From: a virus
Length of the DNA stretch: 64,000 bases
Virus record (IMG/VR): IMGVR_UViG_2907408351_000002
Reading direction: 5' to 3' (one strand)
Shown here: positions 1,764 through 52,760 of the stretch, piece after piece
How positions within the stretch are numbered: position 1 is the stretch's first letter
Layout of the letters: each line of letters opens with the position of its first letter
The notes under the pieces: model-generated
What the model was told of the DNA's origin: nothing
What the model saw: only the letters and a program-made list of their open reading frames with translations
Databases searched by the model: none
Made by a program: the position numbers and the translations under genes

Positions 1764-4040
1764 TTGCAATGTAAAAACAATCTTCGATTTGTCCCCCATC
1801 GTATGAATCAAGACGAGATAATCCAGAGTTTCTTAAAAGGGCGGAAATTTGAAGTTGGAAGGGAAAGCGTTAGGAAGGACGGAATTTACAGAAAGATTTC
1901 CGATTCAGGTGAAAAATCTAAACAGTGGAAGCTAATTCAAAAACATAACGAGGATAAAAAAAGATTCTCAAAAATATTAGAAGCGATAACGAACTTCTTC
2001 GGAGCTGATAAGAAGGACGCAAAGTTTATTCCGAAACGTGAATACGATTCCAATAAAATCGAAGATAAAGGAATCTCTATTCAAGAGTGGACAAGACATT
2101 TTACTAAATATTTTGAAAGTAAATCTCAAATCGATGCAAAATTTCATCAAGAAAAGAATGCAACTGAAACGAATTCGACTATTATCGAAAATAAGAATAA
2201 TTCAAATCAGGTAACAAATTTCACAACGAATATCACGAATCAAAATACAGGCAAACCTACATTCAAAAAATCAATTTTCAAAATACTTTACGACCTTTAT
2301 GGAGATGGAAATGGAAAATCAAATCGCGATAATGAATCGAATAATCGAGTCGAGTTATCAAATTCTACCGACAAGGGATCCGGAATGGGTCTATCAAAGC
2401 CTACTCGGGATGGCGAAAGCGGACAAATTAGAACCGACACCGGAAAATCTGCTCTCTTTGGCAGGAAATCTGGAAATGGATCTTCTTCAAGAGTTTCAAG
2501 TGACGAACGAATAACAAAAGAAGAATCGTTGGCGCTTTCCGTAGCGGACAAACTAAATACTTTTCGAGGCCTCTGGAGCAAGAAAAAACAAAACGAGATC
2601 AATTTAGAATGTAAGAAAATCCTTTCTACCACCCCACCTGAACAAATTACTTCAGAACAAAAAGAAATTTTAAGATTATACGAAGGTTCTGGAGGACAAA
2701 CGACAAATGCAGAAGTGGAGGCGAATAGAGGAATGCTATATCAATTCCTTACTCCAACAAAAGTCGTCGAGAAAATGCAGGATATACTTTCTCGCTATGT
2801 GAATGAGGGGGACAAGGGCATGGAACCTTCGGCTGGTATCGGCAGGTTTGCTGATGGCAAAGGAGGAAAATACAATTGGGATATGATGGAATATAACCCG
2901 GATGATAAAACAGCCTTTTCTATCGCAAAAATCTTAAATCCAGAAGCGATCGGAATTTTAACTTCGGATACAAAAAATAAAAAAGCAAAAGATCCTGAAC
3001 TTGGAAAGCAGGGACTTTCAAGGTTCACTGAAATTTCCCAGCAATTCAATTCAGCAAAACATCCTTGTAAGATTCTTATTGGGTCGGACGTAATCAAGGA
3101 AGGTGTTTCTTTGAATAACAATACAATTGCCGCGTATAATGCCTCGATAGATTGGAATCCAACTACAGAGGTTCAGAAAAGAGGTAGGCACCATCGACCG
3201 GGAAATTTACAAAAGAATGTTCAATGGATAGATATCTTGATGGAAGACTCTATTGATTCGAAACTCTATCAAAAGCAATCCGAAAAAATTTCTCGTATCA
3301 ATCAAATATTTGAAAAGAGTGGATCGGCAGCAATCGATGTTTCAGATATAAATCCGGAAGAATTGAAAACCGATATAATTCGAGATCCTAAAAGGAAGGC
3401 TCAATTTATTGTAAATGAAGAGGCTGCAAAAGTAAGGCAGGAAGCAAAGGAGCTCCAAGGAAAGTCTTTCACGCTTCAGGGTATAGTCGATGAAATTAGG
3501 GAACTTAGAAACACAGTCCAAAACGAAGAACGATGGTTAAGTGAAGAAAAAAAAGATCTAAAGGAAAATGTAGAAGAGTTTAACAAACTCAAAAAAAAAG
3601 GACGATCGGAAAGCTATGGACCACTGTCCGAATTCTCAATTAGCTATCAAAGAAAGAAAGTTCAAGACTTAGTTACAAGTCTTTCAATCAATAAAGCCAA
3701 GCTACAAAGAAATGAAGAGAACCTAGAAAGAAAAGGACTAAGTGATTTGGTTAAAGCCGAATCAGCGGCGAATAAACTTATGAGTGAGTCAGATAAACTA
3801 TCAGAAAAGGTCCGAGAAATACTCGGGAATAAGAAGGAAGAGTATATTTCAAAATTCACGAAGGAACTCGCGGAGAAGGAGAAGAACAAAGCGAAGGAAT
3901 CAATTGATTCGATTGTTTATAAGCATGTCCGCGAACTTTTATCCGTAGCAGGAATAAACGAGTTCCGTAAATCGCTTGCTTTGAATTCCGAAATCAGGAA
4001 TCGAATTACTCTAAAGCGATACTTGAAATCGGCATGTTAG
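1764..4040 (+). CDS. Large virion-module protein with N6-adenine MTase-like motifs (QFLTP / MEPSAGIGRF) and SNF2-type helicase C-terminal motifs V/VI (LIGSDVIKEGVSL / DWNPtteVQkrGRhHRpG); N/S/T-rich N-terminus, coiled-coil C-terminus
   Basis: Motifs read directly in translation (about nt 2715-2828 and 3073-3203). No Walker A/DEXH core between them. Confidence 0.6.
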   Translation: MQCKNNLRFVPHRMNQDEIIQSFLKGRKFEVGRESVRKDGIYRKISDSGEKSKQWKLIQKHNEDKKRFSKILEAITNFFGADKKDAKFIPKREYDSNKIEDKGISIQEWTRHFTKYFESKSQIDAKFHQEKNATETNSTIIENKNNSNQVTNFTTNITNQNTGKPTFKKSIFKILYDLYGDGNGKSNRDNESNNRVELSNSTDKGSGMGLSKPTRDGESGQIRTDTGKSALFGRKSGNGSSSRVSSDERITKEESLALSVADKLNTFRGLWSKKKQNEINLECKKILSTTPPEQITSEQKEILRLYEGSGGQTTNAEVEANRGMLYQFLTPTKVVEKMQDILSRYVNEGDKGMEPSAGIGRFADGKGGKYNWDMMEYNPDDKTAFSIAKILNPEAIGILTSDTKNKKAKDPELGKQGLSRFTEISQQFNSAKHPCKILIGSDVIKEGVSLNNNTIAAYNASIDWNPTTEVQKRGRHHRPGNLQKNVQWIDILMEDSIDSKLYQKQSEKISRINQIFEKSGSAAIDVSDINPEELKTDIIRDPKRKAQFIVNEEAAKVRQEAKELQGKSFTLQGIVDEIRELRNTVQNEERWLSEEKKDLKENVEEFNKLKKKGRSESYGPLSEFSISYQRKKVQDLVTSLSINKAKLQRNEENLERKGLSDLVKAESAANKLMSESDKLSEKVREILGNKKEEYISKFTKELAEKEKNKAKESIDSIVYKHVRELLSVAGINEFRKSLALNSEIRNRITLKRYLKSAC

Positions 4041-10673: not shown

Positions 10674-12515
10674 ATGTTAATTTCAAACTCAGAAGGAAAA
10701 ACCGATATCGCCGCTCTTACGAACGGAGCCGCAATTACGAAGGATCCACTGTCGGTTCCGAAGAAGAAAAGTTTTCACGATACGTTCAAAGATTTCTTTA
10801 AAAAAAAGTATAAGAAGTCTGATGATAAGAAAACGATTTGTGTAGACTTCGACGGGGTTATCCATTCATATCAGAGCGGGTGGCTGGGTATTGATCAGAT
10901 CCCGGATCCACCGGTTGAGGGCGCGTTTGATTGGCTTCTCGAAATTTCGAACTTTTTCAATGTCATAATTTATTCTTCCCGGTGTTCGGACGCGAAAGGA
11001 ATCGATGCAATAAAAAGTTTTTTGAATACTCGCCAAGATGAATGGCGACAATCTAGATACGCGAGGAATCTCGGTGTCCCGAAAATGAGTAAATTTTCGG
11101 ATCTATTTCAGTATTCCGCGAATAAAATTCCAGCGCACTTATATTTAGATGATCGAGGAATTCAATTCCAAGGAGTTTTTCCGTCGACAGAAGAGTGTGA
11201 AAATTTTTGTTCTTGGGTAGATTCAAAAGAATTCAAGAAATCATCGTCTTCTTTAAAAATAAAAAAGGGGGATGTGAATTCTGATCCAACAGAAGCACAA
11301 AAGAAAGCCGGAAATTATAAAAAGAAACATCTAAAAATTCATGATCTTCCGATTACGATTGAGAATCCCGCGGGAAGCAGTCGGAAAGGTATCGACCCGG
11401 ATGGAAAATCTTGGGAAACAAAAATGAACCACCATTATGGTTATATAAAGGGTTCAAAGGGAAATGACGGAGACCACATAGACGTTTTTATCGGACCGAA
11501 TCCAAATTCGGAAATTGTTTTTGTAATCAATCAAGTGAATCCGAAAACAAAAGAGTTCGACGAACATAAAGTTATGCTCGGATTTGATTCGGACGAGGAC
11601 GCAAGGAACGGTTACCATTCTTGCTACGAAAAAGGTTGGAGTGGACTTGGAGACATGGTCTCCATGACGATCAACCAGTTTCAAAACTGGTTAGAAAATT
11701 CGGATACTCAAAAGGAAGTTGAAGAATTCTTTCATAAAGCACAAGCGGCGCAAGTTGGAGAAAGAAGAACTTGGAATGACGGTCTTCAACATGAAAAAAC
11801 TTCGAGTGGAGATTGGAAAGCGGTCGGGGCCGGAAAAGAATCTGCTCAAGCATATAAACCCACCGCAAAAGTTCCGACATCCGGGAGTTCCAAAACTCAT
11901 GCAGTCACCCACGAACAAAAGGCCGTCGAAGTTTTGGATCGTTGGAAAGAGTTTGAGCAGAAAGCAAAAGAAAGAAATAAAGAAAGAGTCGCTAGGACTC
12001 CTCCGGAAAAACGAGCGCAACTGAATGACGTAAAATACGCCGTTCCGGGCGATATCGTTCGAATCGAACGTCCAAACAGCGGAAAAATCAATCGTGGTCA
12101 TATCGCGGAAGTTATGGGAAAGGTTGATGATATGATCAAAATCAAACTTCCATCCGGAAGTGAATTTCTTTTTTCACCTCATGATTTGGCCTATGCGAAA
12201 TCATCCGGATCTCAACAGATCTTTTCATATCAGTTCTTAAAAAGTTCAAATTCGGAAAATCCAAACATTCACACTTTTTCCGACGGAAATACTTATCAGA
12301 AAGAAGGAAATGGTTGGCGTTTGATTTCATCAGAAGAAGAAAACGATTCATCTCCGGAGGAAGATAAAGAGTTCGTCGAAAAGGCAATGAAGGCTGGAGA
12401 AAAAGTTCCGGTTAAAGTACTTAAGAATTATCCGGAACTTTTAAAGCAATTTCCGGAATACGAAAATCGGGTCAAGTCCATCGAGGCTCTTTCAAGTAAA
12501 TTCCTGAAACAATGA
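10674..12515 (+). CDS. Three-part protein: N-terminal HAD-superfamily phosphatase (NT5C-like: VDFDGV…VIIYSS…K…YLDDRG), central inorganic-pyrophosphatase-like domain (HHYGYIKG…DGDHIDVFIG…FDEHKVMLGF), K/E-rich C-terminal region
   Basis: HAD motifs I-IV read in order; central block aligns by eye to family-I PPase core (E. coli YPCNYGYI…DGDPVDVLV…). Placement between capsid and neck genes. Confidence 0.55.
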   Translation: MLISNSEGKTDIAALTNGAAITKDPLSVPKKKSFHDTFKDFFKKKYKKSDDKKTICVDFDGVIHSYQSGWLGIDQIPDPPVEGAFDWLLEISNFFNVIIYSSRCSDAKGIDAIKSFLNTRQDEWRQSRYARNLGVPKMSKFSDLFQYSANKIPAHLYLDDRGIQFQGVFPSTEECENFCSWVDSKEFKKSSSSLKIKKGDVNSDPTEAQKKAGNYKKKHLKIHDLPITIENPAGSSRKGIDPDGKSWETKMNHHYGYIKGSKGNDGDHIDVFIGPNPNSEIVFVINQVNPKTKEFDEHKVMLGFDSDEDARNGYHSCYEKGWSGLGDMVSMTINQFQNWLENSDTQKEVEEFFHKAQAAQVGERRTWNDGLQHEKTSSGDWKAVGAGKESAQAYKPTAKVPTSGSSKTHAVTHEQKAVEVLDRWKEFEQKAKERNKERVARTPPEKRAQLNDVKYAVPGDIVRIERPNSGKINRGHIAEVMGKVDDMIKIKLPSGSEFLFSPHDLAYAKSSGSQQIFSYQFLKSSNSENPNIHTFSDGNTYQKEGNGWRLISSEEENDSSPEEDKEFVEKAMKAGEKVPVKVLKNYPELLKQFPEYENRVKSIEALSSKFLKQ

Positions 12516-13261
12516 GCGATTCTATTCTTTCCAAACTCAAATCGAAACCAAACATGTTTCCGCGGTTTTATGCGGTTCTCGGAGCCGCGGCAACTGATAT
12601 ACGAGACAAGTGGGAATTTTTGGCGGGAAAGCGCGCTGGGGTTTCAATCAAAAATGGCGGATTAGGTTGGTGGGGTCAACAGTATCTTGCAAACGGACAA
12701 ATCCAAATCAAACGATCCGGTTTGGGATACCAGATTTTTTATGATAGCAACAAGTCTTCGTATGATTTCGAAAAAGTAGCAGAAAGTGGTCGCGGTTCTT
12801 TTGATATCGCTTCCTACCTACTCTCGAATTCCAAGAAAGTAAGAATAAATGCAAGAGGAAAGAAATTTCTGATCATTCCGATGAAAGGAAAAGAAGAACA
12901 ATCCGCTTCCGCGGTGATGAAAATTCTTTCAACTTCCAAGGTAACCTCGCCAATGGGTGGGAAAGTAAAAAGGAATTCTTATTCGGTTGAAAAAATTGAA
13001 AATAAATCTCGTACAAACACTGTAAAATTTCAGCAGTTGAATGAACGAGGTGGAAGTTCCTCAAGTGTTAGTAAGATGGTGGTTTTAACAGAGGATTCGA
13101 ATTGGGAGCCCTATCCAGAAATAACAGGACAGAAATTTGTTCAAAGAATGCAGGAAGAAGCAGATAGGATTCTCAGAAGTCCTGAATTTTTAAAAAACCT
13201 TGCAGAGGCATTGACGTTTGACTTAAAAGAAATCTATTTAAAGAAGAAAAAAAAGAAATGA
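12512..13261 (+). CDS. Hypothetical neck/head-completion region protein (249 aa, ends in Lys6)
   Basis: 4-nt overlaps with neighbours. Confidence 0.5.
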   Translation: MSDSILSKLKSKPNMFPRFYAVLGAAATDIRDKWEFLAGKRAGVSIKNGGLGWWGQQYLANGQIQIKRSGLGYQIFYDSNKSSYDFEKVAESGRGSFDIASYLLSNSKKVRINARGKKFLIIPMKGKEEQSASAVMKILSTSKVTSPMGGKVKRNSYSVEKIENKSRTNTVKFQQLNERGGSSSSVSKMVVLTEDSNWEPYPEITGQKFVQRMQEEADRILRSPEFLKNLAEALTFDLKEIYLKKKKKK

Positions 13262-14059: not shown

Positions 14060-14341
14060 TTGTCCACATGCCATATGGCAGGCAATGAGAGCTCGACTCC
14101 TACCTCTTCAGAGAATAAAGAAAGTTTTTTAGAAAAGTTCATCACCGAAAAAGAGGAACTTTCGCGTTACTCGATGGCGCATACATTTCGTGTTTTTTGT
14201 ACTCAAAATTTCAAAAAATTTAACGAGTTGAAAACCGAGAATGATATCAAAAATGCCTTCGAACTTTTTTTTCATGGAAGAGAACCAAAAGAAGAATCGA
14301 AAGCACCTGCCACCTTAGAATCTAAAGGTGGTCTTAAGTAA
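14060..14341 (+). CDS. Hypothetical small protein (93 aa) upstream of sheath
   Basis: ORF; stop overlaps sheath start. Confidence 0.4.
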   Translation: MSTCHMAGNESSTPTSSENKESFLEKFITEKEELSRYSMAHTFRVFCTQNFKKFNELKTENDIKNAFELFFHGREPKEESKAPATLESKGGLK

Positions 14342-16149
14342 TGGGAACTTCGGGAAGTGTTTTTCAGGGAAGAGCGCTCGTAGCTCCTGGAGCTCGCGGT
14401 AAATTTCAAAGTATCGGAGCGAATCCCGGCGCCGGCGCGGATAAATTCACTTTAGTTCTCATCGGTAAAGCCGCGAACGGTGTTTATTTTAACGATTCGT
14501 CTTCTCCTTCGCTCCGAGATGATCAGCGGTACTATACAATTTCCGGCGGAGTAAACGGGTACAATCAGGCAAAAAGTATTTTAGGGAGTGGAGAATTACT
14601 TCAAGCAATCAAGTTCGCGACTTTTCCCTCGAGTGATGACAGCCTTGCTCAAGGCCCGCAACTTATCAAATTTCTGAACATCTGCCCAAATACAAAGGCT
14701 TTCAATGACTTCCCGTCTTTAAAGACCGGTCAAACGCATAAAATCTCTTTTCCAATTCCGGGCCCTAACGGGAAGAAGGTTCGGTTTTATAAGAACATCA
14801 CGGATAAGACAATTCAAATCGGTGATGACAAAGGAATTCTACAATCGAGAAAACTTGAGAAAGCCGTTTTCAACGTTTCTTATATTGGAAACGCTACGGC
14901 CGCGCTTTTGGAAATTGACGCAACAAATCTAAAAGTAACTTTAACCGGATCCACCGACAATTCCGCTTCGATTTCTATCAAATTCGCGGATTATCCAACG
15001 ATCGGTGAAGTAGTCGATCAGATCAATTCTCAAGTCGGATACGTGGCTTCGCTCATCGAATCTCCAGAATTTTTAGCTGCAAATCTTGATCATATCGAAG
15101 CGACCGATTCAAATTCAGTAAAGGCGCCAACGAATCAATTGATCTACGCGGATCTTTTTATGGAACAGAAATTCATAGAGGGAACCGGTTTCGGTGAAGT
15201 CGTTTTAGGACCGGTAAGGAAACCTTTCGCCGGTTCTACGATGTTTAAGTATCTTTCGCAAGGCGGAACGACCGGAACACCCGGATCCACCGATTTAAAA
15301 GATGCGATCACCTTCTCCAAAAAAATCTCTGGGTTATACCGAAACATTCTCTCTTCCACCCTTTCCGACAAAACGTATTTTAAACAAGTTTGTTTTGATA
15401 TGATCTCTCCGGATACCGGATTGGAAACAATCGGAGGTTGCGGAGCCGACGGAGTTTTAACAATTCCTCAGAGACAGGACGAAGGCAGAACGCTCGGAAC
15501 GTACTGGATGACTTACGGATTGGAATCGTTTCGAGATTTTGATATCAACGGGATAGAGCAAACTTTCCCTGGGTATTTTCTGGCCGTAATCGATAACGCA
15601 ATTTCCGCGGCGAATTCTCCAAGAATTTCTCCGACATGGAAGTCTTTGAATATTCTGAAAAGCGCGGAGTATATTTCGCGAGATTCCGCGGTACGGGACG
15701 CTTGTATCAAAGCCGGAACTTTGATTTTAGATCAAAAACCTTCCGACGATTCCTGGGTAATTTCAAGAAGTGTAACGACCGAACGAAAAGATGATTTGAT
15801 CTTAAATGAAAAATCATCCGTTGCAACCGCACTTACGATGGTTCGCGAGCTCCGGGTTGGCTTTAACGCGAAATTCATCGGACAAAGTATGGTCGATGAT
15901 TCCTCCCCTGTTTCGGGTGTTCGTGTTCCGGATGTTCTCAACTACATCGAAGGAAAACTCGAGTATTTTGTTCAACAAGGTTACATGATCGGTTCCGCGG
16001 CGCTCGGTGTCGAAGCATTCAAGAAGAATTTCTCTATTCAAGTCGATGGGGACACTTGGTCCTTCATGGACCTTGAAGGGAACGTTACTACACCTTTGAA
16101 TTTCATTTTCTATATTCTTTCCCTAAAACCATTGAGAGGTAAGGCATAA
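14341..16149 (+). CDS. Putative contractile tail sheath protein (602 aa)
   Basis: Size and conserved order sheath-tube-chaperone(frameshift)-tape measure. Confidence 0.5.
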   Translation: MGTSGSVFQGRALVAPGARGKFQSIGANPGAGADKFTLVLIGKAANGVYFNDSSSPSLRDDQRYYTISGGVNGYNQAKSILGSGELLQAIKFATFPSSDDSLAQGPQLIKFLNICPNTKAFNDFPSLKTGQTHKISFPIPGPNGKKVRFYKNITDKTIQIGDDKGILQSRKLEKAVFNVSYIGNATAALLEIDATNLKVTLTGSTDNSASISIKFADYPTIGEVVDQINSQVGYVASLIESPEFLAANLDHIEATDSNSVKAPTNQLIYADLFMEQKFIEGTGFGEVVLGPVRKPFAGSTMFKYLSQGGTTGTPGSTDLKDAITFSKKISGLYRNILSSTLSDKTYFKQVCFDMISPDTGLETIGGCGADGVLTIPQRQDEGRTLGTYWMTYGLESFRDFDINGIEQTFPGYFLAVIDNAISAANSPRISPTWKSLNILKSAEYISRDSAVRDACIKAGTLILDQKPSDDSWVISRSVTTERKDDLILNEKSSVATALTMVRELRVGFNAKFIGQSMVDDSSPVSGVRVPDVLNYIEGKLEYFVQQGYMIGSAALGVEAFKKNFSIQVDGDTWSFMDLEGNVTTPLNFIFYILSLKPLRGKA

Positions 16150-16150
16150 A

Positions 16151-16600
16151 ATGGCTGATCCGCAATTACCCGAAGATCTCCCGGATCCGTCGATCCTCGT
16201 CGGATCGAACGCTCAAGTATATATCGATGGGGTAATTGCCGCCTACATAAACGACGTCGATATCGATGAAAACTACAATCAGACGCCGTTTTATGCGTTG
16301 GGTGATTTTTTTCCGAAAACGACAAAACCTTTACGTTTTGAAGGCACTCTTACCGGAAAGATGTATATCGTCACCGACAATCAAGATCCGGGTGCAGTCA
16401 AAACTCTTCCCGATCTAAGCAATATCATTTCTCACAAAGGGAATCTGCTTGAGTTTAGAGAGAAAAGTACCGGAAAAAGAATCCTTCGCGCTCTGTGCAA
16501 GTTGGATACCCGTAAAACAGGACTCAGTACTGAAAACGGTTCCGCTTCCGATATTTCTATGAAAATTATCCGGATTCAAAAGAAAGAGGCTTATAACTGA
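16151..16600 (+). CDS. Putative tail tube protein (149 aa)
   Basis: Size/position after sheath. Confidence 0.5.
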   Translation: MADPQLPEDLPDPSILVGSNAQVYIDGVIAAYINDVDIDENYNQTPFYALGDFFPKTTKPLRFEGTLTGKMYIVTDNQDPGAVKTLPDLSNIISHKGNLLEFREKSTGKRILRALCKLDTRKTGLSTENGSASDISMKIIRIQKKEAYN

Positions 16601-17031
16601 TGGGACTTTTCCCGGGAGTTGAAAGAAGTTTTTCCTTTGAATTGGAAGGCAGCATTTTCGCGGGTAGTTTTCCGGTTAGGAAAGTTCGTCGGGATATCGA
16701 CGTTGAAGTTGCTCAAAGACTGAAATACGTTCCACTTAACTCGATTCCATCGGACACGTATTCATTAGAGCTGATGTGCGTTACTTTAAACAAAGTTTTT
16801 ACGACGAAACCAAAAGAACTTGAAGGTATCGATTTTGCAGATCTTCCCGACGATGAAATTATCTTGAAGATTTGGGAAAAATACAGAAAACTTGAGAAGG
16901 TCTACGAAGATCAGTTAAAAAAAAATAACCGACCCGATTTACCTAAGAGAACTGATTCGAACGAATCAAGTCTTCCTTTTAAACCTGTATCTACTACTAA
17001 ACTACCGGACGCTGCCGAGCGAGTGGACTAG
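16600..17031 (+). CDS. Putative tail assembly chaperone (143 aa), upstream partner of frameshifted product
   Basis: Position between tube and tape-measure genes; overlapped at 3' end by a start-less ORF in the +1 frame. Confidence 0.45.
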   Translation: MGLFPGVERSFSFELEGSIFAGSFPVRKVRRDIDVEVAQRLKYVPLNSIPSDTYSLELMCVTLNKVFTTKPKELEGIDFADLPDDEIILKIWEKYRKLEKVYEDQLKKNNRPDLPKRTDSNESSLPFKPVSTTKLPDAAERVD

Positions 17032-17284
17032 TTTAGAGGACATTGAGGATGAAGAAAAATTAGCGATTTTCTTCGCCGATTCCCTTCTCTCAAAATGGCT
17101 GAATAGATACAAAGGAACATTCGATATTCAATTGGAAATCGATTCCTTAAAATCAAAAAGTTATAAAGCATTTCTCGAGGTTTGGGAATTTGAAGAATAT
17201 CCACTAAGCCGAGCGAAGCAGTTAGGAGAAATTCGTAGACTCGATAAGATTGCAGAACTTGAGAAACTCAAAGAATTTGGATAA
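16919..17284 (+). CDS. Start-less +1-frame ORF overlapping chaperone 3' end; candidate programmed-frameshift extension (slippery A9 run 16917-16925)
   Basis: Frame open from stop at 16916-16918 to TAA at 17282-17284 with no ATG/GTG start in frame; A9 run at its 5' edge. Confidence 0.35.
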   Translation, partial: KKITDPIYLRELIRTNQVFLLNLYLLLNYRTLPSEWTSLEDIEDEEKLAIFFADSLLSKWLNRYKGTFDIQLEIDSLKSKSYKAFLEVWEFEEYPLSRAKQLGEIRRLDKIAELEKLKEFG

Positions 17285-17286
17285 CG

Positions 17287-18954
17287 ATGGCGAACGATAA
17301 AGTTGAAATCAATGTAGATTCTCTTGCAAAACGAATTTACGAAAAACTTGCTCCCGAATTAAGAAAAGAATTCGATCGCCGTAAAAACTCCCCAAACATA
17401 CCTTCTGCGTCCGACCCCAAACCTTCGAGCGGAAGCAAGGAAAGTAAGAAAAAAAAGAAGCCTGGATCAACCACCGAAGGCTACCAAACCGGTGATCACA
17501 CTGGAACAGGGGTTGAAACGGATCTAAACGAACTAAGATCGGGAAGATTTTCTGGAATTCTTTCGAGAAAAGTCGCATCCGCTAAGAAAATCAAAGACGC
17601 ATTCAAAGAATACCGTGAGAAGAAAAAGAAGAAAGACAAGGATGAAAATCTTCCCGGAATGCCCGATGCTTTCAATCCCACGGGTGGCGGCGGGAAATAT
17701 GATAAGCTCGTCGTTAGAGAAGCCAAGTTTGATAAAGTCATAGGCTTGACTGGAAATGGCGGGGGTGGCGGCGGAGGTCGCGTCTATGGTGGGAAATTTA
17801 CATTTCCGGAAAGGGAGCCGACAGGCGGAAATCAACCCGCACAAGGACAACCTACAGAAACAAAGTCTTCGCTACTCTCAAAAATTGGTTCAGCGATCGC
17901 GCCGGCTGCCTTTGGTGCCGGAGCCGTAGTCGGTGCCGCAACTTCCTTAATTTCCTCGATGGCCGGAATGCACCAACAATCCCTTCAATCACAGGATTCG
18001 AGTTTGGATGCAATGGGAGGTTACGTTGGCGGTGGTGGAGGACTGATAAAGAATGCAGAGTATGCGCAAATTGGAATTGCCCGTGCGAGAATACTAGGAG
18101 GGGAAGGAAGGGACCACATTAGTAGTAATGTCGTTTCTGATAAGAATAAATTGGCAATTCAATATGGATTGACTCAAGGAATTGGAGGATCACAGGGTTC
18201 GGAACTATTCGCAAAGATGAACAAATACGGTGGTTTTCGAGAGAGTAGCACTGAATTAAAAAAAATCATGTCCGATGGAATTCGTTCTGGTTTCTCAGGA
18301 TTAAGACAATCTGAGTTCTTGTCGAATATCTCGTCTGTTTCGGAAAATGCTTATAATTCCGGAATGGGACTTCAAAGTGCGGAAGATATCTCGAGGACAT
18401 TTTCAAATATTGCGAGTTCCGGAATACGTGATAACAGAGTGAATTCTGTATATCAAAATTTGAATGATAACGTTTCTAAAAAGGGAAATTTTATGAATTC
18501 GGTTTTGTTAAGCGAATACACGGCATCGGGTAAAAGTCCATTAGAAGCGATGTCTATGGCTGAACGCGGGATTTCGGATAAACAAAATGCCAATACATTG
18601 AACGGTTTCATGTCTTCATTAGGTTTAGAACCGGAAACTTTAGGTTTATTGCAAAACCAATTAGGAATCACTACTGCTACTGAATCTTATTCCATGGCAA
18701 AATCAGGAAAGAATTTATTTGATTTAGGTAAAAGTACAAACATTTCAAATGAGGGAGAGCAGGCAGTAGAAAAAGTTTCCTCAAGTGAAGGTCAAGTATT
18801 TAGAAGTCATGCAAACGCATTAGACTCTATGGCCGCGACAAGCGAGATGTTTATTAAGGCTAGTCAAATTCAGGAGAGAGTTTTTGATACTATAATAAAT
18901 ACCATCGGAAAAATGGATTCAGTGGTGAAAAAATTAGAAGGCTACTTCAAATGA
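17287..18954 (+). CDS. Putative tail tape measure protein (555 aa, Gly-rich, one hydrophobic segment)
   Basis: Position after chaperone pair; composition. Confidence 0.5.
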   Translation: MANDKVEINVDSLAKRIYEKLAPELRKEFDRRKNSPNIPSASDPKPSSGSKESKKKKKPGSTTEGYQTGDHTGTGVETDLNELRSGRFSGILSRKVASAKKIKDAFKEYREKKKKKDKDENLPGMPDAFNPTGGGGKYDKLVVREAKFDKVIGLTGNGGGGGGGRVYGGKFTFPEREPTGGNQPAQGQPTETKSSLLSKIGSAIAPAAFGAGAVVGAATSLISSMAGMHQQSLQSQDSSLDAMGGYVGGGGGLIKNAEYAQIGIARARILGGEGRDHISSNVVSDKNKLAIQYGLTQGIGGSQGSELFAKMNKYGGFRESSTELKKIMSDGIRSGFSGLRQSEFLSNISSVSENAYNSGMGLQSAEDISRTFSNIASSGIRDNRVNSVYQNLNDNVSKKGNFMNSVLLSEYTASGKSPLEAMSMAERGISDKQNANTLNGFMSSLGLEPETLGLLQNQLGITTATESYSMAKSGKNLFDLGKSTNISNEGEQAVEKVSSSEGQVFRSHANALDSMAATSEMFIKASQIQERVFDTIINTIGKMDSVVKKLEGYFK

Positions 18955-18955
18955 T

Positions 18956-20044
18956 TTACTTAATATACAACACAAGTCTCTTTTGTCCAACACTCAATCC
19001 AAAATCATTAATGTCTACTTGATCTATTTTTCCAGATACATCATAAACTTTACCAATTTTAATATTTCTTACTTCTTCTTTTGAATTAACCAACTTGATG
19101 ACTTCGACAACGCTTATTGCATTGTTTATTTTTTTTAATTCTTCCAAATTATTGTTCGGAAGAATTTGATCATATTCGATTAAATAATTGCCAGTATTTT
19201 TTCCAATACTCCATTTTCTTGTAGAGCCTTTTTCAGGAATCACCGTGTTCGCGCGCAAGTTAGAAAAAGATATATTTTCACCTTTTAATTTAACTTTCAA
19301 GGATGACATTTCTTTTTTAAACTCTTCTTTCTTTTCGGATACTGCAATTTCATTATCCTCTTTTAAAATTTTGTATTTCCATAAGGATTTGAATAGATTT
19401 AGAACTTTAATATACTCATCTTTCATCATCTCATCTAAGGATATTTTATTAATCGCCTCTTTGTATAATGACTCGTCCTCAATATAGACCGTTAAATAAG
19501 ATGGATTGTAATCAATAAAACCAATATAGCCTGCAATCGGAATATATCTTTCATTCCCTTGCTTTATTTTTTCTCTTTCTTCATAGGTAGTACAATTTCC
19601 ATTTTCTTCAGGCTTTGAAATTTTGATTATTTTTATGGCGTCTATTTTCTTATTGGAAACAAACTTTGGGAGTTTTTCATTTCCAAATTGAAATTCAGCA
19701 TAGTGAAGATGTGATTTTAAATTTTTGTTATGGATGTAGCGTTTCAGCGAATATTCGTCGCCATCCCCATTTTCCATTTTTCCAAGATCATCAATATTCA
19801 ATATTTCAATGGAATCGAGAGAGAGAAATTTTCCTTTCAATTTAGAATTTAGAGAAACAATTTTCATTTCTGAAGAATCCTTCATCAGAAAATTCAGGAG
19901 ATTCAGTGTATTAGAATATTCTGCTTCGCTTTGTCGCACAGGAGAGTTCTGTAATTTTTGGTTTAAATTTGAGTCAGAGTATAACCTTAAAGAAAATAAA
20001 AAACAAAAAGTTATTATTAAAAAATACTTCATGAATAGCTCCAA
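18956..20044 (-). CDS. AT-rich secreted/lipoprotein-like moron (362 aa; N-terminal signal MKYFLIITFCFLFS…) on opposite strand inside tail module
   Basis: Signal-peptide-like N-terminus, K/N/I-rich composition, markedly lower GC than neighbours. Confidence 0.55.
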   Translation of the reverse strand: MELFMKYFLIITFCFLFSLRLYSDSNLNQKLQNSPVRQSEAEYSNTLNLLNFLMKDSSEMKIVSLNSKLKGKFLSLDSIEILNIDDLGKMENGDGDEYSLKRYIHNKNLKSHLHYAEFQFGNEKLPKFVSNKKIDAIKIIKISKPEENGNCTTYEEREKIKQGNERYIPIAGYIGFIDYNPSYLTVYIEDESLYKEAINKISLDEMMKDEYIKVLNLFKSLWKYKILKEDNEIAVSEKKEEFKKEMSSLKVKLKGENISFSNLRANTVIPEKGSTRKWSIGKNTGNYLIEYDQILPNNNLEELKKINNAISVVEVIKLVNSKEEVRNIKIGKVYDVSGKIDQVDINDFGLSVGQKRLVLYIK

Positions 20045-20116: not shown

Positions 20117-20878
20117 TTGAATTTGTCCAAAATCGGAATGGCGATTAAAAAGAAATTATTCGAATCTTTCACTCCTGCAAAGAAAATACAGTTTTCAGGA
20201 CAGGGGCCCTCGGCGCCGTCAATTTTTAATGGATTGGAGCTCGCCGAAATCACTAAGGTTTATTCCGGCCTTTTCAAGTATCGTTGCGATGTTAGGTTGT
20301 TTACCGGAGAAGAAAAAACAAAATTACGACTACCGGGTCCATTTTATGGGGAAATGGGATTTTTCTCCGGCCATAAAGATTCTTATCAAGAAGGACAACT
20401 TTGTCTTGTGGGATTTATCCAAAACAAAAGAGATAACCCGATCGTTCTAAAAATTTTTTCGTTTCCCGGTGGGATTAAAACTCAAACGAATCTAAAAGTA
20501 AATTTGGATTATGATCCGAAAGAAGTATCAACAGGGCATGAATCAGGACACAAAACGATTTGGGATGAAAATGTGCTCAAACACATCGATAAATTAAATC
20601 AAATTCGATTTAAAATCGATGTCTCAACTCCCCCAATTATCAATTCCCTCGAGAAAGCAACACAAGGGGAAACTTTAAAAGCAAAGTTGGAAGAACTCAT
20701 TGATATCGTAAAAGACATTTCAACCGGGATAGCGAATCTCACAGTTCAATGTAACGCACCAGGATCCGCATCTGACGTTCCTAACAATATCGCTAGTTTT
20801 AATTCAGCGGTTACTAAGCTGAACACCTTAAAATCAACTCTACCGAAAATTCTCTCCGAAGTTTTAAAACACTACTAA
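20117..20878 (+). CDS. Hypothetical tail/baseplate-region protein (253 aa)
   Basis: ORF; position. Confidence 0.45.
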   Translation: MNLSKIGMAIKKKLFESFTPAKKIQFSGQGPSAPSIFNGLELAEITKVYSGLFKYRCDVRLFTGEEKTKLRLPGPFYGEMGFFSGHKDSYQEGQLCLVGFIQNKRDNPIVLKIFSFPGGIKTQTNLKVNLDYDPKEVSTGHESGHKTIWDENVLKHIDKLNQIRFKIDVSTPPIINSLEKATQGETLKAKLEELIDIVKDISTGIANLTVQCNAPGSASDVPNNIASFNSAVTKLNTLKSTLPKILSEVLKHY

Positions 20879-27838: not shown

Positions 27839-28555
27839 ATGAATTACGTAATTGATAAACAAACGAAAGAAGTTCTGTGGATAAATACAGATCCAAAACA
27901 AATTTCCGGACCGGAAGTCTGGTTTGAATTCAATCCGAACAATCATCGTGTGGTTTATTCAGTAAATTATAATCCACAAAAAGGTGATATTTTCAATGCG
28001 GAAATTGTAGATGGAGTTGCTTCCGAGTTTCAGCCAAAATCTGTTTACGATAAAATTTCAGGAATCGAGCGATCACTTGAAGATTGGAACGATAAAATCA
28101 AATCTTCGGAAACTGAAATCCAACCTATCCCTTTTGAAAAATTTCAAAAATTCAACGGAACAACATGGGTTATTGATCAAGAAAGAAGGAGTGCTTATTT
28201 TTTAGAAATCAATTCTGCAATTTTTAATTCTAAAAAGGAAAGTTATAGGGGAACGGTAGAGTTCAAAAATACTATTTGGGATTCTGGAAAGATTTACCAC
28301 GATAATATAAACTCAGTTGTAAGTTTAGCTTCTAAAGGGAAGATTTCAGAAATTCCCCCTTGGAAAGATTCGAATAACGCCTTTTCAATTCTTACAATCG
28401 ACGATCTTCAATCACTAGCTGAATTGATTGAAATTGATTTATACAACGCCGGAATCGCACTCTATCAAAAAAAATGGGAAAACGAAAACACGATCAAAAG
28501 CCTTTCGCCAAGTGATTCGTTTGACCCAAATTCTGCGTGGGAAACAGATGTTTGA
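27839..28555 (+). CDS. Putative tail fibre assembly protein
   Basis: Position directly after fibre gene. Confidence 0.35.
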   Translation: MNYVIDKQTKEVLWINTDPKQISGPEVWFEFNPNNHRVVYSVNYNPQKGDIFNAEIVDGVASEFQPKSVYDKISGIERSLEDWNDKIKSSETEIQPIPFEKFQKFNGTTWVIDQERRSAYFLEINSAIFNSKKESYRGTVEFKNTIWDSGKIYHDNINSVVSLASKGKISEIPPWKDSNNAFSILTIDDLQSLAELIEIDLYNAGIALYQKKWENENTIKSLSPSDSFDPNSAWETDV

Positions 28556-29165
28556 AGATTTATTGAAAGCATTAGGATTAGGTGTATGTATCGGTGTTTA
28601 CACTTTCGTAAAACATTTGTACGACAAATGGGTTGAGAAGAAAGCGATCGAGAATAATAAAAAGAAATCTCTCGGTAAGATCGAACTAGTTTTGAATATC
28701 AATTCGATGGTACAAGACCGTCTCGCTTTACTTCGCGATCATTACTCAGCAAGTCGAGCCAAAGTTTTTCAGTTTCATAACGGTGAGTATTACCTTAACG
28801 GTGCCGGCGTCGAAAAGTTCTCAATGTCGCATATCTCCGTAAAACCGGGAATGGCCGTTCCGTATAACTTTGAAGAGTACTATACAAAAAAAGAGATTTC
28901 GATGTCTGTCGAACTCATTAAACCGATCTGTGACTCATCGTTTTATTATCTTAAAACAGATGATCTTCCGGAAACTTCGCGGTGGAGAAGAATTTTCCGT
29001 TTTAACGATATAAAGGCCCATCTATTCGCCAAAATCGATTATCAAGGATTTGCCGAAGGTTTTATTTCGATTTCGTGGCATGATGACCTTGAACACGATA
29101 CAGACCCAACTGAAATTATTCGCGCCGCGGAAGAAATCGGTTTACTTCTAAGGACAGACAAATGA
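28548..29165 (+). CDS. Membrane-anchored protein with Gly/Ala-rich weakly hydrophobic N-terminus (SAR-like), lysis-cassette candidate
   Basis: ATG at 28548 overlaps upstream stop (ATGTTTGA); N-terminus LLKALGLGVCIGVYTFV. Confidence 0.4.
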   Translation: MFEDLLKALGLGVCIGVYTFVKHLYDKWVEKKAIENNKKKSLGKIELVLNINSMVQDRLALLRDHYSASRAKVFQFHNGEYYLNGAGVEKFSMSHISVKPGMAVPYNFEEYYTKKEISMSVELIKPICDSSFYYLKTDDLPETSRWRRIFRFNDIKAHLFAKIDYQGFAEGFISISWHDDLEHDTDPTEIIRAAEEIGLLLRTDK

Positions 29166-29810: not shown

Positions 29811-30083
29811 ATGAAAAAACAAATCAAGTACGTCGGGAGAATTGCCAAGGATGAATGTAAGAAAAAATCTTTTGCAATCTTCGTGGTCGCCTCTCTTATC
29901 GAGGCAGGTTTACAAGCAACCGGTAAAGCGTCGATGCTATCCTTTTTGGGTCAAAACATTACGTATTTCGGAGTCATTGGGATTTGCTCATTTACGGTTT
30001 ATATGAAAAAACCTCTTACCGAAGTAGTAAATTCTTTCCGGAGCGGAAAAACGAAAGTTGAGGCGGATCCAAATCATGAATAG
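29811..30083 (+). CDS. Holin-like small membrane protein (90 aa, two hydrophobic segments, charged C-terminus)
   Basis: ATG at 29811 preceded by GGAGAA; topology read from sequence. Confidence 0.4.
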   Translation: MKKQIKYVGRIAKDECKKKSFAIFVVASLIEAGLQATGKASMLSFLGQNITYFGVIGICSFTVYMKKPLTEVVNSFRSGKTKVEADPNHE

Positions 30084-31594: not shown

Positions 31595-32377
31595 TTATTT
31601 CAATTGAAAGAGGGTATTCGATCCGCTACTTAGATAGGTGTCGGGATATTTACCGTCCCATTTCTTAATTCGTTCCATCTCGACCATCATAGGTGTGATT
31701 TGTTGAGATTTAAGTCTTAACGCTTCCGCCTCAGCTCGGGCTTGTGCGATCTGTTGTTCGGCTTCAACTTTCACTTTTTCAAGTTCGTTTTTAGCTCGCA
31801 AAGCATCTTGTTCTGCTTTCTGCTTCAACTCAATCGATTCAGAAAATGTTTTAGAGAATTCAAAATCCTTCATGGACACTTCATCCACTAGGATATAGAA
31901 TTTTCCAAGTTTAGTTCTTAGTAGCTCGTGAATCTCTTTCGAGACTGTTTCTCTTTTAGTCACTAAGTCTGATGCAGTAAACTGTGCTGTTACGTGTTTC
32001 ATTGTTTCTAGAATCGCAGGAACAATAATTGTTTCTTCGAAATCCATTCCGACTTCTTGATACAATTTATTAACTTGGTTTGGCGACAAATGATAGGTTA
32101 AAGTAATTTTAGTATGAATTTCTTGCAAATCACTTGAGGGTGCTGCAGAATTCGCTTCTACTTTCTGAACTCTAACATCGATACTCGTGACTGATTGGAA
32201 AAAAGGAGTAATTAAATTTATTCCTTCTCCAAGAATTCTGTCCGAAACTGAACCTAGGTTTGTTACAACCCCTCGATGTCCGGTACTTACACACTTGATT
32301 GGATTGAAAATCAATACCAATATCACCACTAAACCCTTAAGCCAATGCTTTTTAGCCAAATTCAAATATTCTTCCAT
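31595..32377 (-). CDS. SPFH/band-7 (stomatin/prohibitin/HflK-like) membrane protein
   Basis: N-terminal TM then HRGVVTNLG…ITPFFQSVTSIDVRVQ… and long Ala/Glu/Gln coiled C-terminus typical of band-7 proteins. Confidence 0.8.
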   Translation of the reverse strand: MEEYLNLAKKHWLKGLVVILVLIFNPIKCVSTGHRGVVTNLGSVSDRILGEGINLITPFFQSVTSIDVRVQKVEANSAAPSSDLQEIHTKITLTYHLSPNQVNKLYQEVGMDFEETIIVPAILETMKHVTAQFTASDLVTKRETVSKEIHELLRTKLGKFYILVDEVSMKDFEFSKTFSESIELKQKAEQDALRAKNELEKVKVEAEQQIAQARAEAEALRLKSQQITPMMVEMERIKKWDGKYPDTYLSSGSNTLFQLK

Positions 32378-52019: not shown

Positions 52020-52760
52020 ATGAAAATTGTCGCAATTTGCTCGGGCAAAGGTGGCGTCGGAAAAACAACGACGACGATCTATCTTGGTCAATCCCTCGCT
52101 TATTTAGGGTTCCGCGTCCTCCTAATTGACTTTGATTTTAACTCAAATTTGAGTAAGTTTTTCTTCAAACTCTTCAAAGACGTCGTGAACGAATCGGAAG
52201 GAAAAAATTCGTATAAAGCACTAGTCGATGGTTGCGATTTTGAACCTCATATCTACAAAACCGGAACGAAAATAGATTTCATTTCGACAATCGAGCGTTT
52301 GAAAAAAATTGACTTTGAATTCTATGATGACCCAGGGTTTAAATCACTGTTTGGAAGAGAGCTCCGAAAATTGGATTACGATTTCGTTCTAATCGATCTT
52401 CATAACGTTGTGAACGTGGTGTTGGACGCTGCGGTATTTAATGCGGATCAAATTGTTTCTCCAATGGAATACGGAGATTGGAGCCAGGATGGAACCGCAA
52501 AAATCTTAAAGCTCCATCGCGAAAATGAAATATTACAGAAAAGAAAAATCCCACTAAGAGTCGTACCTTCTCGGGTAACAAAAAAAAAGGCGGAGAAAAT
52601 CATTTCCCTCGGTGCGCAGGTCGGTCTGACTGTCAGCGGGTGCGTAAATATCAATGATGATGTCGTGCTCACGAGCTCAAACCTTGGCGAGCTATTGAAG
52701 CCCGATGTTCATGCCGCATTTGCGCGTTTCCTTGAGCTTGCGAAGGAGGTTTCAATTTGA
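52020..52760 (+). CDS. parA: ParA partition ATPase (small type-Ib-like)
   Basis: Deviant Walker A KGGVGKTT at N-terminus, 246 aa. Confidence 0.85.
   Translation: MKIVAICSGKGGVGKTTTTIYLGQSLAYLGFRVLLIDFDFNSNLSKFFFKLFKDVVNESEGKNSYKALVDGCDFEPHIYKTGTKIDFISTIERLKKIDFEFYDDPGFKSLFGRELRKLDYDFVLIDLHNVVNVVLDAAVFNADQIVSPMEYGDWSQDGTAKILKLHRENEILQKRKIPLRVVPSRVTKKKAEKIISLGAQVGLTVSGCVNINDDVVLTSSNLGELLKPDVHAAFARFLELAKEVSI

Follow-up and report, generated by a model that had tools for sequence, protein, structure and literature searches.

The 64,000-nucleotide (nt) stretch of viral DNA analysed here (IMG/VR record IMGVR_UViG_2907408351_000002, hereafter the window) is an LE1-like Leptospira plasmid-prophage of the myovirus type. 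Between its tail tube gene and a candidate tape-measure gene it carries two overlapping open reading frames (ORFs) that meet at a run of exactly nine A's (A9, 16917-16925; context ...GAT CAG TTA AAA AAA AAT AAC CGA...). A programmed recoding site very probably exists at this run, where one coding region would give both a short protein, here called G (143 amino acids (aa), frame 0), and an extended one, G-T (227 or 228 aa), with the first 108 residues in common. As for the statement as a whole, namely a chaperone gene pair whose frame change takes place on A9 by slippage of the RNA polymerase, we lean towards it.

G is made up of a conserved N-terminal domain (N-domain, residues 1-108) and a frame-0 tail of 35 residues. 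The +1 frame is closed by a TAA at 16916-16918, so the frame change cannot precede the run; it opens at 16919, inside the run, and has 122 open codons up to the TAA at 17282-17284. One extra A in the mRNA, or a -1 ribosomal slip, would lead instead to a truncated product of 109 aa, ended by the TAA at 16926-16928. A preliminary description of the window had placed the run at 16917-16925, the opening of the overlap at 16919 and its end at 17284, coordinates which the sequence and its three-frame translation bear out. The same description had seen a G/GT-type tail-chaperone arrangement extending into the +1 frame, with which the gene order and the matches of related proteins to PHROG families named ‘tail assembly chaperone’ agree, had named transcriptional slippage on A9 as an alternative mechanism, and had proposed a comparison with related phages, among which the two-frame arrangement proves to be conserved. 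With an off-frame stop density of 5.6% in the window, a 119-codon open stretch in the +1 frame has a probability of about 1e-3. A chance arrangement is rejected, decisively because 29 of 30 related loci have A9 at this very junction.

The A9 run and the frame that follows it

The related loci include 24 of Leptospira type, namely LE1 (a Sanger-era record), CZ214, 18 IMG/VR prophages, one GTDB genome and three closed plasmids. These fall into three subfamilies whose fused proteins are only 23-42% identical; loci within a subfamily are not independent, and the sample amounts to about ten independent DNA lineages in addition to 40 protein clusters. The run is A9 in 23 of these 24 loci and A8 in the remaining one, and it is exactly A9 in all six distant loci (31-66% GC), whose DNA was fetched by a single-protein contig look-up. 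The locus with A8 (L004, the IMG/VR draft IMGVR_UViG_2537561531_000006, run at 3315-3322) has one uninterrupted ORF of 226 aa, and is either a natural variant that makes G-T only or a homopolymer miscall in a draft genome.

The junction TTA AAA AAA AAT of the window recurs in distant contigs of 66%, 54% and 51% GC, and other distant junctions read GGA AAA AAA AAT and ATA AAA AAA AAT. In one distant locus (L025, GAG GAA AAA AAA AGA) the run starts one base earlier with respect to the codons, at codon position 2, and still counts nine A's. TTA accounts for 2 of 67 Leu codons in the 66% GC contig and for 0 of 26 in the 54% GC contig, and in neither of them is AAA commoner than AAG. The length of the run is conserved regardless of codon phase, synonymous codon preference and GC content. 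Searched exhaustively with phmmer, a set of 1.84 billion representatives yielded 43 cluster representatives, nearly all of which align only up to residue 105-113 of the query, showing that frame-0 homology stops at the K-K junction. That junction is LKKN in 36 of 40 representatives, GKKN in two, and IKKN and EKKR in one each, all of which can encode A9. Two proteins of 267-268 aa (P0017, at 2001-2807 of L033, and P0028) have the N-domain tandemly duplicated upstream of the same LKKN/A9 junction.

Other homopolymers do not behave in this way. The run between G and its extension is the sole homopolymer of at least 8 bases common to all loci in flanks of about 6 kb, and is the only one kept among the coding homopolymers of at least 8 bases of the window that can be aligned to LE1 (8 in number). 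The LKKI of the tape-measure gene, for instance, is written TTA AAA AAA ATC in the window and TTA AAG AAA ATC in LE1, leaving the residues the same and the run broken. Over the whole window, 3 A9/T9 runs are observed, compared with 20.4 +/- 6.0 in dinucleotide-preserving shuffles (an about 7-fold depletion), which would be expected of runs that do harm in general; each of the three consists of A's on the + strand. The immediate stop in the -1 frame was also considered as a conserved feature. It occurs in 23 of the 24 Leptospira-type loci but is absent in most distant members, and was given no weight.

Beyond the run, all 30 run-bearing loci have the extension (T) in the +1 frame, in the six distant ones it reaches as far as the next gene, and its motif LL(N/D)LYL..(E)F.ILP is conserved in all lineages. 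When frame 0 up to ...QLKK is joined to the +1 frame from ITDPIYL..., the resulting protein of 227 aa matches positions 1-224 of the 226 of phrog_21489 (E 3e-100) with no gap at the junction. This end-to-end match, together with the uninterrupted ORF of L004, argues that the fusion is a real protein. The variable sites after the run, counted by codon position 1/2/3 of the +1 frame, amount to 45/33/80 of 119 codons in the group of the window, 14/10/54 of 116 in that of LE1 and 52/33/83 of 120 in that of CZ214, which is the same third-position pattern as frame 0 has upstream of the run. The LE1 and CZ214 groups show it clearly even within the 105 nt that immediately follow A9. From A9 onward, it is the +1 frame that is selected as coding and kept by purifying selection.

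Within the overlap, sites vary least at the third position of frame 0, which indicates that the frame-0 tail has no amino-acid constraint of its own. This tail (16926-17031 in the window; P0001-P0046 among the relatives) measures 33-105 codons after K-K in 40 clusters, with a median of 72 and two size classes, and about 18 codons are expected from the off-frame stop density. It has no frame-0 codon signature despite this length. The tail could be either a selected, compositionally constrained disordered end of G, or a means by which frame-0 ribosomes are kept translating towards the start of the tape-measure gene; the long open frame may be a case of dual coding or reflect that frame 0 has to stay open.

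Origin of the frame change

In the mechanism that we favour, the RNA polymerase would copy the T9 template and the rA:dT hybrid of about 9 bp would realign without mismatch, resulting in a mixed population of mRNAs, each of which would be translated normally. The A9 mRNA would give G, while A8 or A11 mRNAs would give G-T, with the junction ...QLKK-ITDP or ...QLKKK-ITDP, respectively, and the A10 mRNA would give the 109-aa product ended by the TAA adjoining the run. In G-T, the C-terminal 119 residues would come from +1-frame codons that reach as far as the start of the candidate tape-measure gene.

A polymerase, as opposed to a ribosomal, origin of the shift is suggested by two sets of observations. 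The first is that the length of the homopolymer is conserved irrespective of phase and GC content, as a polymerase site predicts. The second is that A9 matches the length of the RNA-DNA hybrid and that no conserved RNA structure, Shine-Dalgarno-like sequence or slow codon is seen around it. RNAalifold found 0 conserved pairs between -30 and +100, and an Rfam search gave no match. Hairpins were considered as a stimulator and rejected, as the signal is confined to the window (z = -2.1) and is not conserved. The flanks of the run that were inspected show no conserved Shine-Dalgarno-like sequence, their upstream bases differing between lineages, and the frame-0 codon in the A site is a common Asn codon (AAT is used 134 times and AAC 96 times in the structural genes of the window).

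Published systems lend support to slippage by the polymerase. Runs of 9 A/T allow high-efficiency slippage by bacterial RNA polymerase in vivo, the RNA-DNA hybrid being 9-10 bp long, and Thermus dnaX uses a run of 9 A/T (PMC5009743). An A9 cassette gave 40% frameshifting in E. coli, compared with 10% for A7 and 63% for A11 (PMC3711429). Two length variants are made from tssM1 of C. rodentium (A11), whose transcripts have 10-15 A's and where the ratio of the variants matters, as well as from tssM3 of Y. pseudotuberculosis (A9), with 15-25% frameshifting (PMC4256274).

Several points weigh against slippage by the polymerase. The slippage of RNA polymerase reported at A-runs mostly adds A's. One added A leads into the closed -1 frame, and G-T therefore needs the rarer +2 or -1 events. 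A slip of tRNA-Lys in the P site is sterically possible in both observed phases and also becomes commoner with the length of the run, which makes the conservation of length suggestive, not decisive. Other, non-conserved A9 and A10 runs lie inside ordinary genes of both the window and LE1, from which it follows that A9 is not catastrophically slippery in the host; should A9 prove slippery in Leptospira, part of what these genes make would be truncated. In two distant lineages (L027/L028 and L029) there is no A-run and T is nevertheless retained in the +1 frame, so that the mechanism there must be different or additional. Finally, to our knowledge the RNA polymerase of Leptospira has never been tested for slippage.

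The runs in ordinary genes are found at 3591-3599 and 52580-52588 of the window, inside the ORFs 1764..4040 and 52020..52760, with no LE1 counterpart that could be aligned. In LE1 there is an A10 at 29961-29970 (gp26) and an A9 at 31676-31684 (gp27); the presumed gp27 counterpart of the window (12512..13261) has no run of at least 8 A's at the matching offset, a position that was estimated, not aligned. Among the run-less loci, L027 (1734-2400) reads ATT CGA AAA TGT, L028 is likewise without the run, and L029 (1040-1751) has, 11 nt after the stop of G, an ATG that belongs to its T-like ORF. A second candidate recoding site in the window, an A8 at 28467-28474 where the ORFs 27839..28555 and 28428..29165 overlap in a +1 relation, was rejected as an ordinary overlap because an ATG at 28548 overlaps the upstream stop (as read by eye).

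Frameshifting by the ribosome on a homogeneous A9 mRNA is a possible, if doubtful, alternative. The peptidyl-tRNA-Lys in the P site would re-pair from AAA to an overlapping AAA, either one base forward (+1, giving LKK-ITDP) or two bases back (-2, giving LKKK-ITDP); a short ‘sliding’ on the A-run is another form that the event could take. The re-pairing would be perfect in both observed phases, and AAA followed by A is available in every run-bearing locus. An efficiency of a few per cent would suffice, and T is still in the +1 frame in the two run-less lineages. It also speaks for the ribosome that tRNA-Lys on A-runs is a classic shifty pair, that the G/GT recoding of other phages is ribosomal (PMC5009743), and that about 13% of the annotated chaperone frameshifts of the SEA-PHAGES set are ‘forward’ ones (350/2718; PMC10274946). 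A +1 slip in the P site needs only AAA-A, yet all nine A's are kept even at 54-66% GC, including the one that forms the third base of the preceding Leu, Gly, Ile or Glu codon. The Asn codon in the A site is neither a stop nor rare, and neither a Shine-Dalgarno-like sequence nor a downstream structure is conserved. Ribosome sliding in a pure E. coli system is weak at A9/A10 and robust only at A11 (PMC4363877).

Phase variation at the DNA level, in which replication slippage between A9 (G only) and A8 (G-T only) would let mixed genomes supply both proteins, is highly improbable. L004 does combine A8 with a fused 226-aa ORF, and homopolymers are hot spots of replication slippage (PMC3711429). Against this, A9 is present in 29 of 30 assemblies, and a miscounted homopolymer in a draft sequence could explain the single A8. 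The rates of replication slippage are, moreover, far below the per-cent level needed for the G:GT ratio within one burst.

Slightly less credible still is that no recoding takes place and T is a separate protein with an internal start in the +1 frame. Separate coding sequences (CDSs) have been annotated for it (LE1 gp33 and 90-aa plasmid CDSs), the T-like ORF of L029 has its own ATG just after the stop of G, and L032 has an ATG directly after the run. In the window, as the preliminary description of a start-less second ORF implies, there is no ATG, GTG or TTG for 70 codons after the run, the first being a TTG at 17132. No start codon in the +1 frame is conserved across the relatives, and the possible starts vary from one lineage to another and are preceded by conserved residues (ITDP.YL, LLNLYL). 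A genuine start codon had been named beforehand as an observation that would speak against recoding; instead, protein conservation and the codon-position signature begin at the run, and the fused model fits the 226-position family free of gaps. The codon signature of the +1 frame and the lack of a conserved start lead us to reject independent initiation, sequencing error and pseudogene decay for the lineage of the window. A homopolymer sequencing error, the other objection raised beforehand, or a frameshifted pseudogene has next to no chance of being correct: homopolymers are error-prone in some sequencing chemistries, but the same A9 and two-frame layout, with both frames intact, recur in independent assemblies made by different methods (Sanger-sequenced LE1, distant metagenome contigs, IMG/VR prophages and the three closed plasmids) and in lineages whose proteins share only 23-42% identity, so that the comparative data refute it.

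Chaperone assignment and known recoding systems

By position and architecture, the gene pair belongs to the functional class of lambda G/GT and P2 E/E+E'. The N-domains of distant relatives match phrog_1038 (13 of 30) and phrog_25000 (4 of 30), both named ‘tail assembly chaperone’, and a weak PF26461 tail-tube match lies just upstream in a distant relative, in the same position as the tube gene of the window. G of the window itself matches only PHROGs of unknown function, and no family of Pfam. Neither the window proteins nor the 30 relatives match a Pfam chaperone family, a PDB profile search with the alignment of the fused protein gave no significant match (E 0.3 or worse), and the AlphaFold2 single-sequence model of the fused protein was unusable (predicted local distance difference test score, pLDDT, 36). 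Gene order and the PHROG matches of relatives thus point to a putative tail assembly chaperone of the G/GT type. If the binding roles of lambda gpG and gpGT (PMC5009743) carry over, the N-domain common to G and G-T would serve to coat the tape-measure protein, and the T domain to bring in the tube protein.

The similarities to lambda gpG/gpGT (Xu, Hendrix & Duda 2004) and P2 E/E+E' are that overlapping ORFs lie between the tube or major-tail gene and the tape-measure gene, that the second ORF has no start of its own, that a short and a C-terminally extended product share the N-domain, and that the arrangement is kept despite low sequence similarity. In contrast with lambda, the shift is here into the +1 and not the -1 frame, a 9-nt homopolymer takes the place of the canonical X XXY YYZ heptamer of -1 frameshifting, and the site is at the 5' edge of a long overlap, with 35-105 codons of frame-0 tail, and not near the stop of G. 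The protein of the window also differs in matching no Pfam tail-chaperone family, and its mechanism may be transcriptional.

With dnaX of Thermus thermophilus (A9), mxiE of Shigella (T9), tssM1 (A11) and tssM3 (A9), the site shares a homopolymer of the length of the RNA-DNA hybrid, the lack of a conserved accessory RNA element and the two length variants from one gene. Among them, tssM1 of C. rodentium is part of a machine resembling a phage tail, requires the +1 frame and is sensitive to the ratio of its variants. The differences are that slippage is here a proposal, that the gene is a presumed phage tail chaperone, and that the run is conserved across a whole protein family of 31-66% GC. The ‘forward’ (+1/-2) chaperone frameshifts of actinobacteriophages described by SEA-PHAGES/PRFect resemble the present case in having the extension in the +1 frame; their motifs consist of 3-4 identical bases with a favourable A-site codon in the +1 frame, and not of an invariant A9 with a common Asn codon in frame 0. 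As for the +1 ribosomal frameshifts of the prfB, antizyme or PSA type, the re-pairing in the P site is found here as well, but not the slow A-site codon or stimulator.

In the literature searched we found no published case of transcriptional slippage for a tail chaperone, and no description of an invariant A9 marking the 5' end of a long overlap. That the whole family (LE1-like plasmid-prophages and their uncultured relatives, 31-66% GC) makes G and G-T by slippage of RNA polymerase on the invariant A9, and not by a ribosomal event, is a generalization for which we see the chances as evenly balanced. If true, the length of the run and not the codon context would set the G:G-T ratio, and the frame-0 tail and the T domain would be dual-coded over 100-315 nt. 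Few recoding events in biology are as conserved as the G/GT frameshift, which is regarded as a ribosomal shift to -1. The present family follows that logic by other means, with a homopolymer of nine bases, strictly conserved, from which the +1 frame is entered, and slippage by the polymerase would make this the first transcriptional version of an otherwise translational rule. There would then be a parallel to dnaX, for which E. coli uses the ribosome and Thermus the polymerase. Both LE1 and L. biflexa can be cultured, so the mechanism is open to direct test.

Gene order, annotation and neighbouring features

Features of the locus are listed in Table 1. The gene for the tube protein, which has a weak match to the Pfam family DUF2001 ‘phage tail tube’ below the curated cut-off (E 0.0027), overlaps the start of G with its stop (ATGA), and the ATG of the candidate tape-measure gene is found 2 nt after the stop of T. 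The order of sheath, tube, G, T and the 555-aa protein is that of LE1, the plasmids, L031 and L033. The position of the Gly-rich 555-aa protein after G/T, and its length compared with the tail of LE1, suggest that it is the tape measure: at 0.15 nm per residue it predicts a tail of about 83 nm, and that of LE1 measures 75-115 nm (LE3/LE4 paper). The proteins of the locus are 95% identical to those of a Leptospira ainazelensis contig, and G is 96% identical to a 129-aa protein of L. adleri, from which it differs essentially only in the called start.

Table 1 Features of the G/T locus and of the adjacent genes in the window.
Feature	Position	Strand	Evidence
Tail sheath gene, 602 aa, upstream context	14341..16149	+	phrog_279 ‘tail sheath’, E 2.6e-71
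Tail tube gene, 149 aa	16151..16600	+	phrog_3776, E 1.5e-52
G, frame-0 ORF, 143 aa	16600..17031	+	phrog_27449 (144 positions), E 2.5e-68; homologues P0001-P0006
TAA in the +1 frame	16916..16918	+	three-frame translation; 5' limit of the +1 ORF
A9 run, proposed slip site (TTA AAA AAA AAT in frame 0)	16917..16925	+	exact A9 in 29/30 related loci
T extension, 119 codons in the +1 frame (ATA ACC GAC ... TAA), without a start of its own	16925..17284	+	fused protein against phrog_21489; third-position variation
TAA in the -1 frame, directly 3' of the run	16926..16928	+	three-frame translation
Candidate tape-measure protein, 555 aa, Gly-rich	17287..18954	+	phrog_3763, E 1e-124, no annotated function

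The current annotations of LE1 and of the LE1-like Leptospira plasmids all split or shorten the gene. In the LE1 record, gp32 and gp33 are overlapping genes, the latter in the +1 frame from a TTG; 90-aa CDSs stand for the T region in RefSeq plasmids, and CZ214 and RefSeq plasmids annotate other pieces of the G/T gene. No frameshift is annotated in the LE1, CZ214 or RefSeq plasmid records inspected, and none is mentioned in the LE3/LE4 paper. In the CZ214-type subfamily (L002 at 2899-3537, L013-L021 and L024) the frame-0 ORF runs about 105 codons past the run, to 212-217 aa, which leads databases to annotate a long ‘G’ and to miss the T frame; such frame-0 readings seem to underlie PHROG 4951 (214 positions). 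The A9 rule offers a simple aid to annotation, and the site may escape frameshift predictors that look for short forward motifs together with a favourable A-site codon in the +1 frame.

On the other side of the candidate tape-measure gene, an ORF of 362 aa on the - strand (18956-20044) precedes the next + strand gene (20117..20878). Its hydrophobic N-terminus resembles a signal peptide (MKYFLIITFCFLFSLRLYS), and LE1 likewise has reverse-strand genes (gp35 and gp36) in this place. The ORF may be a moron.

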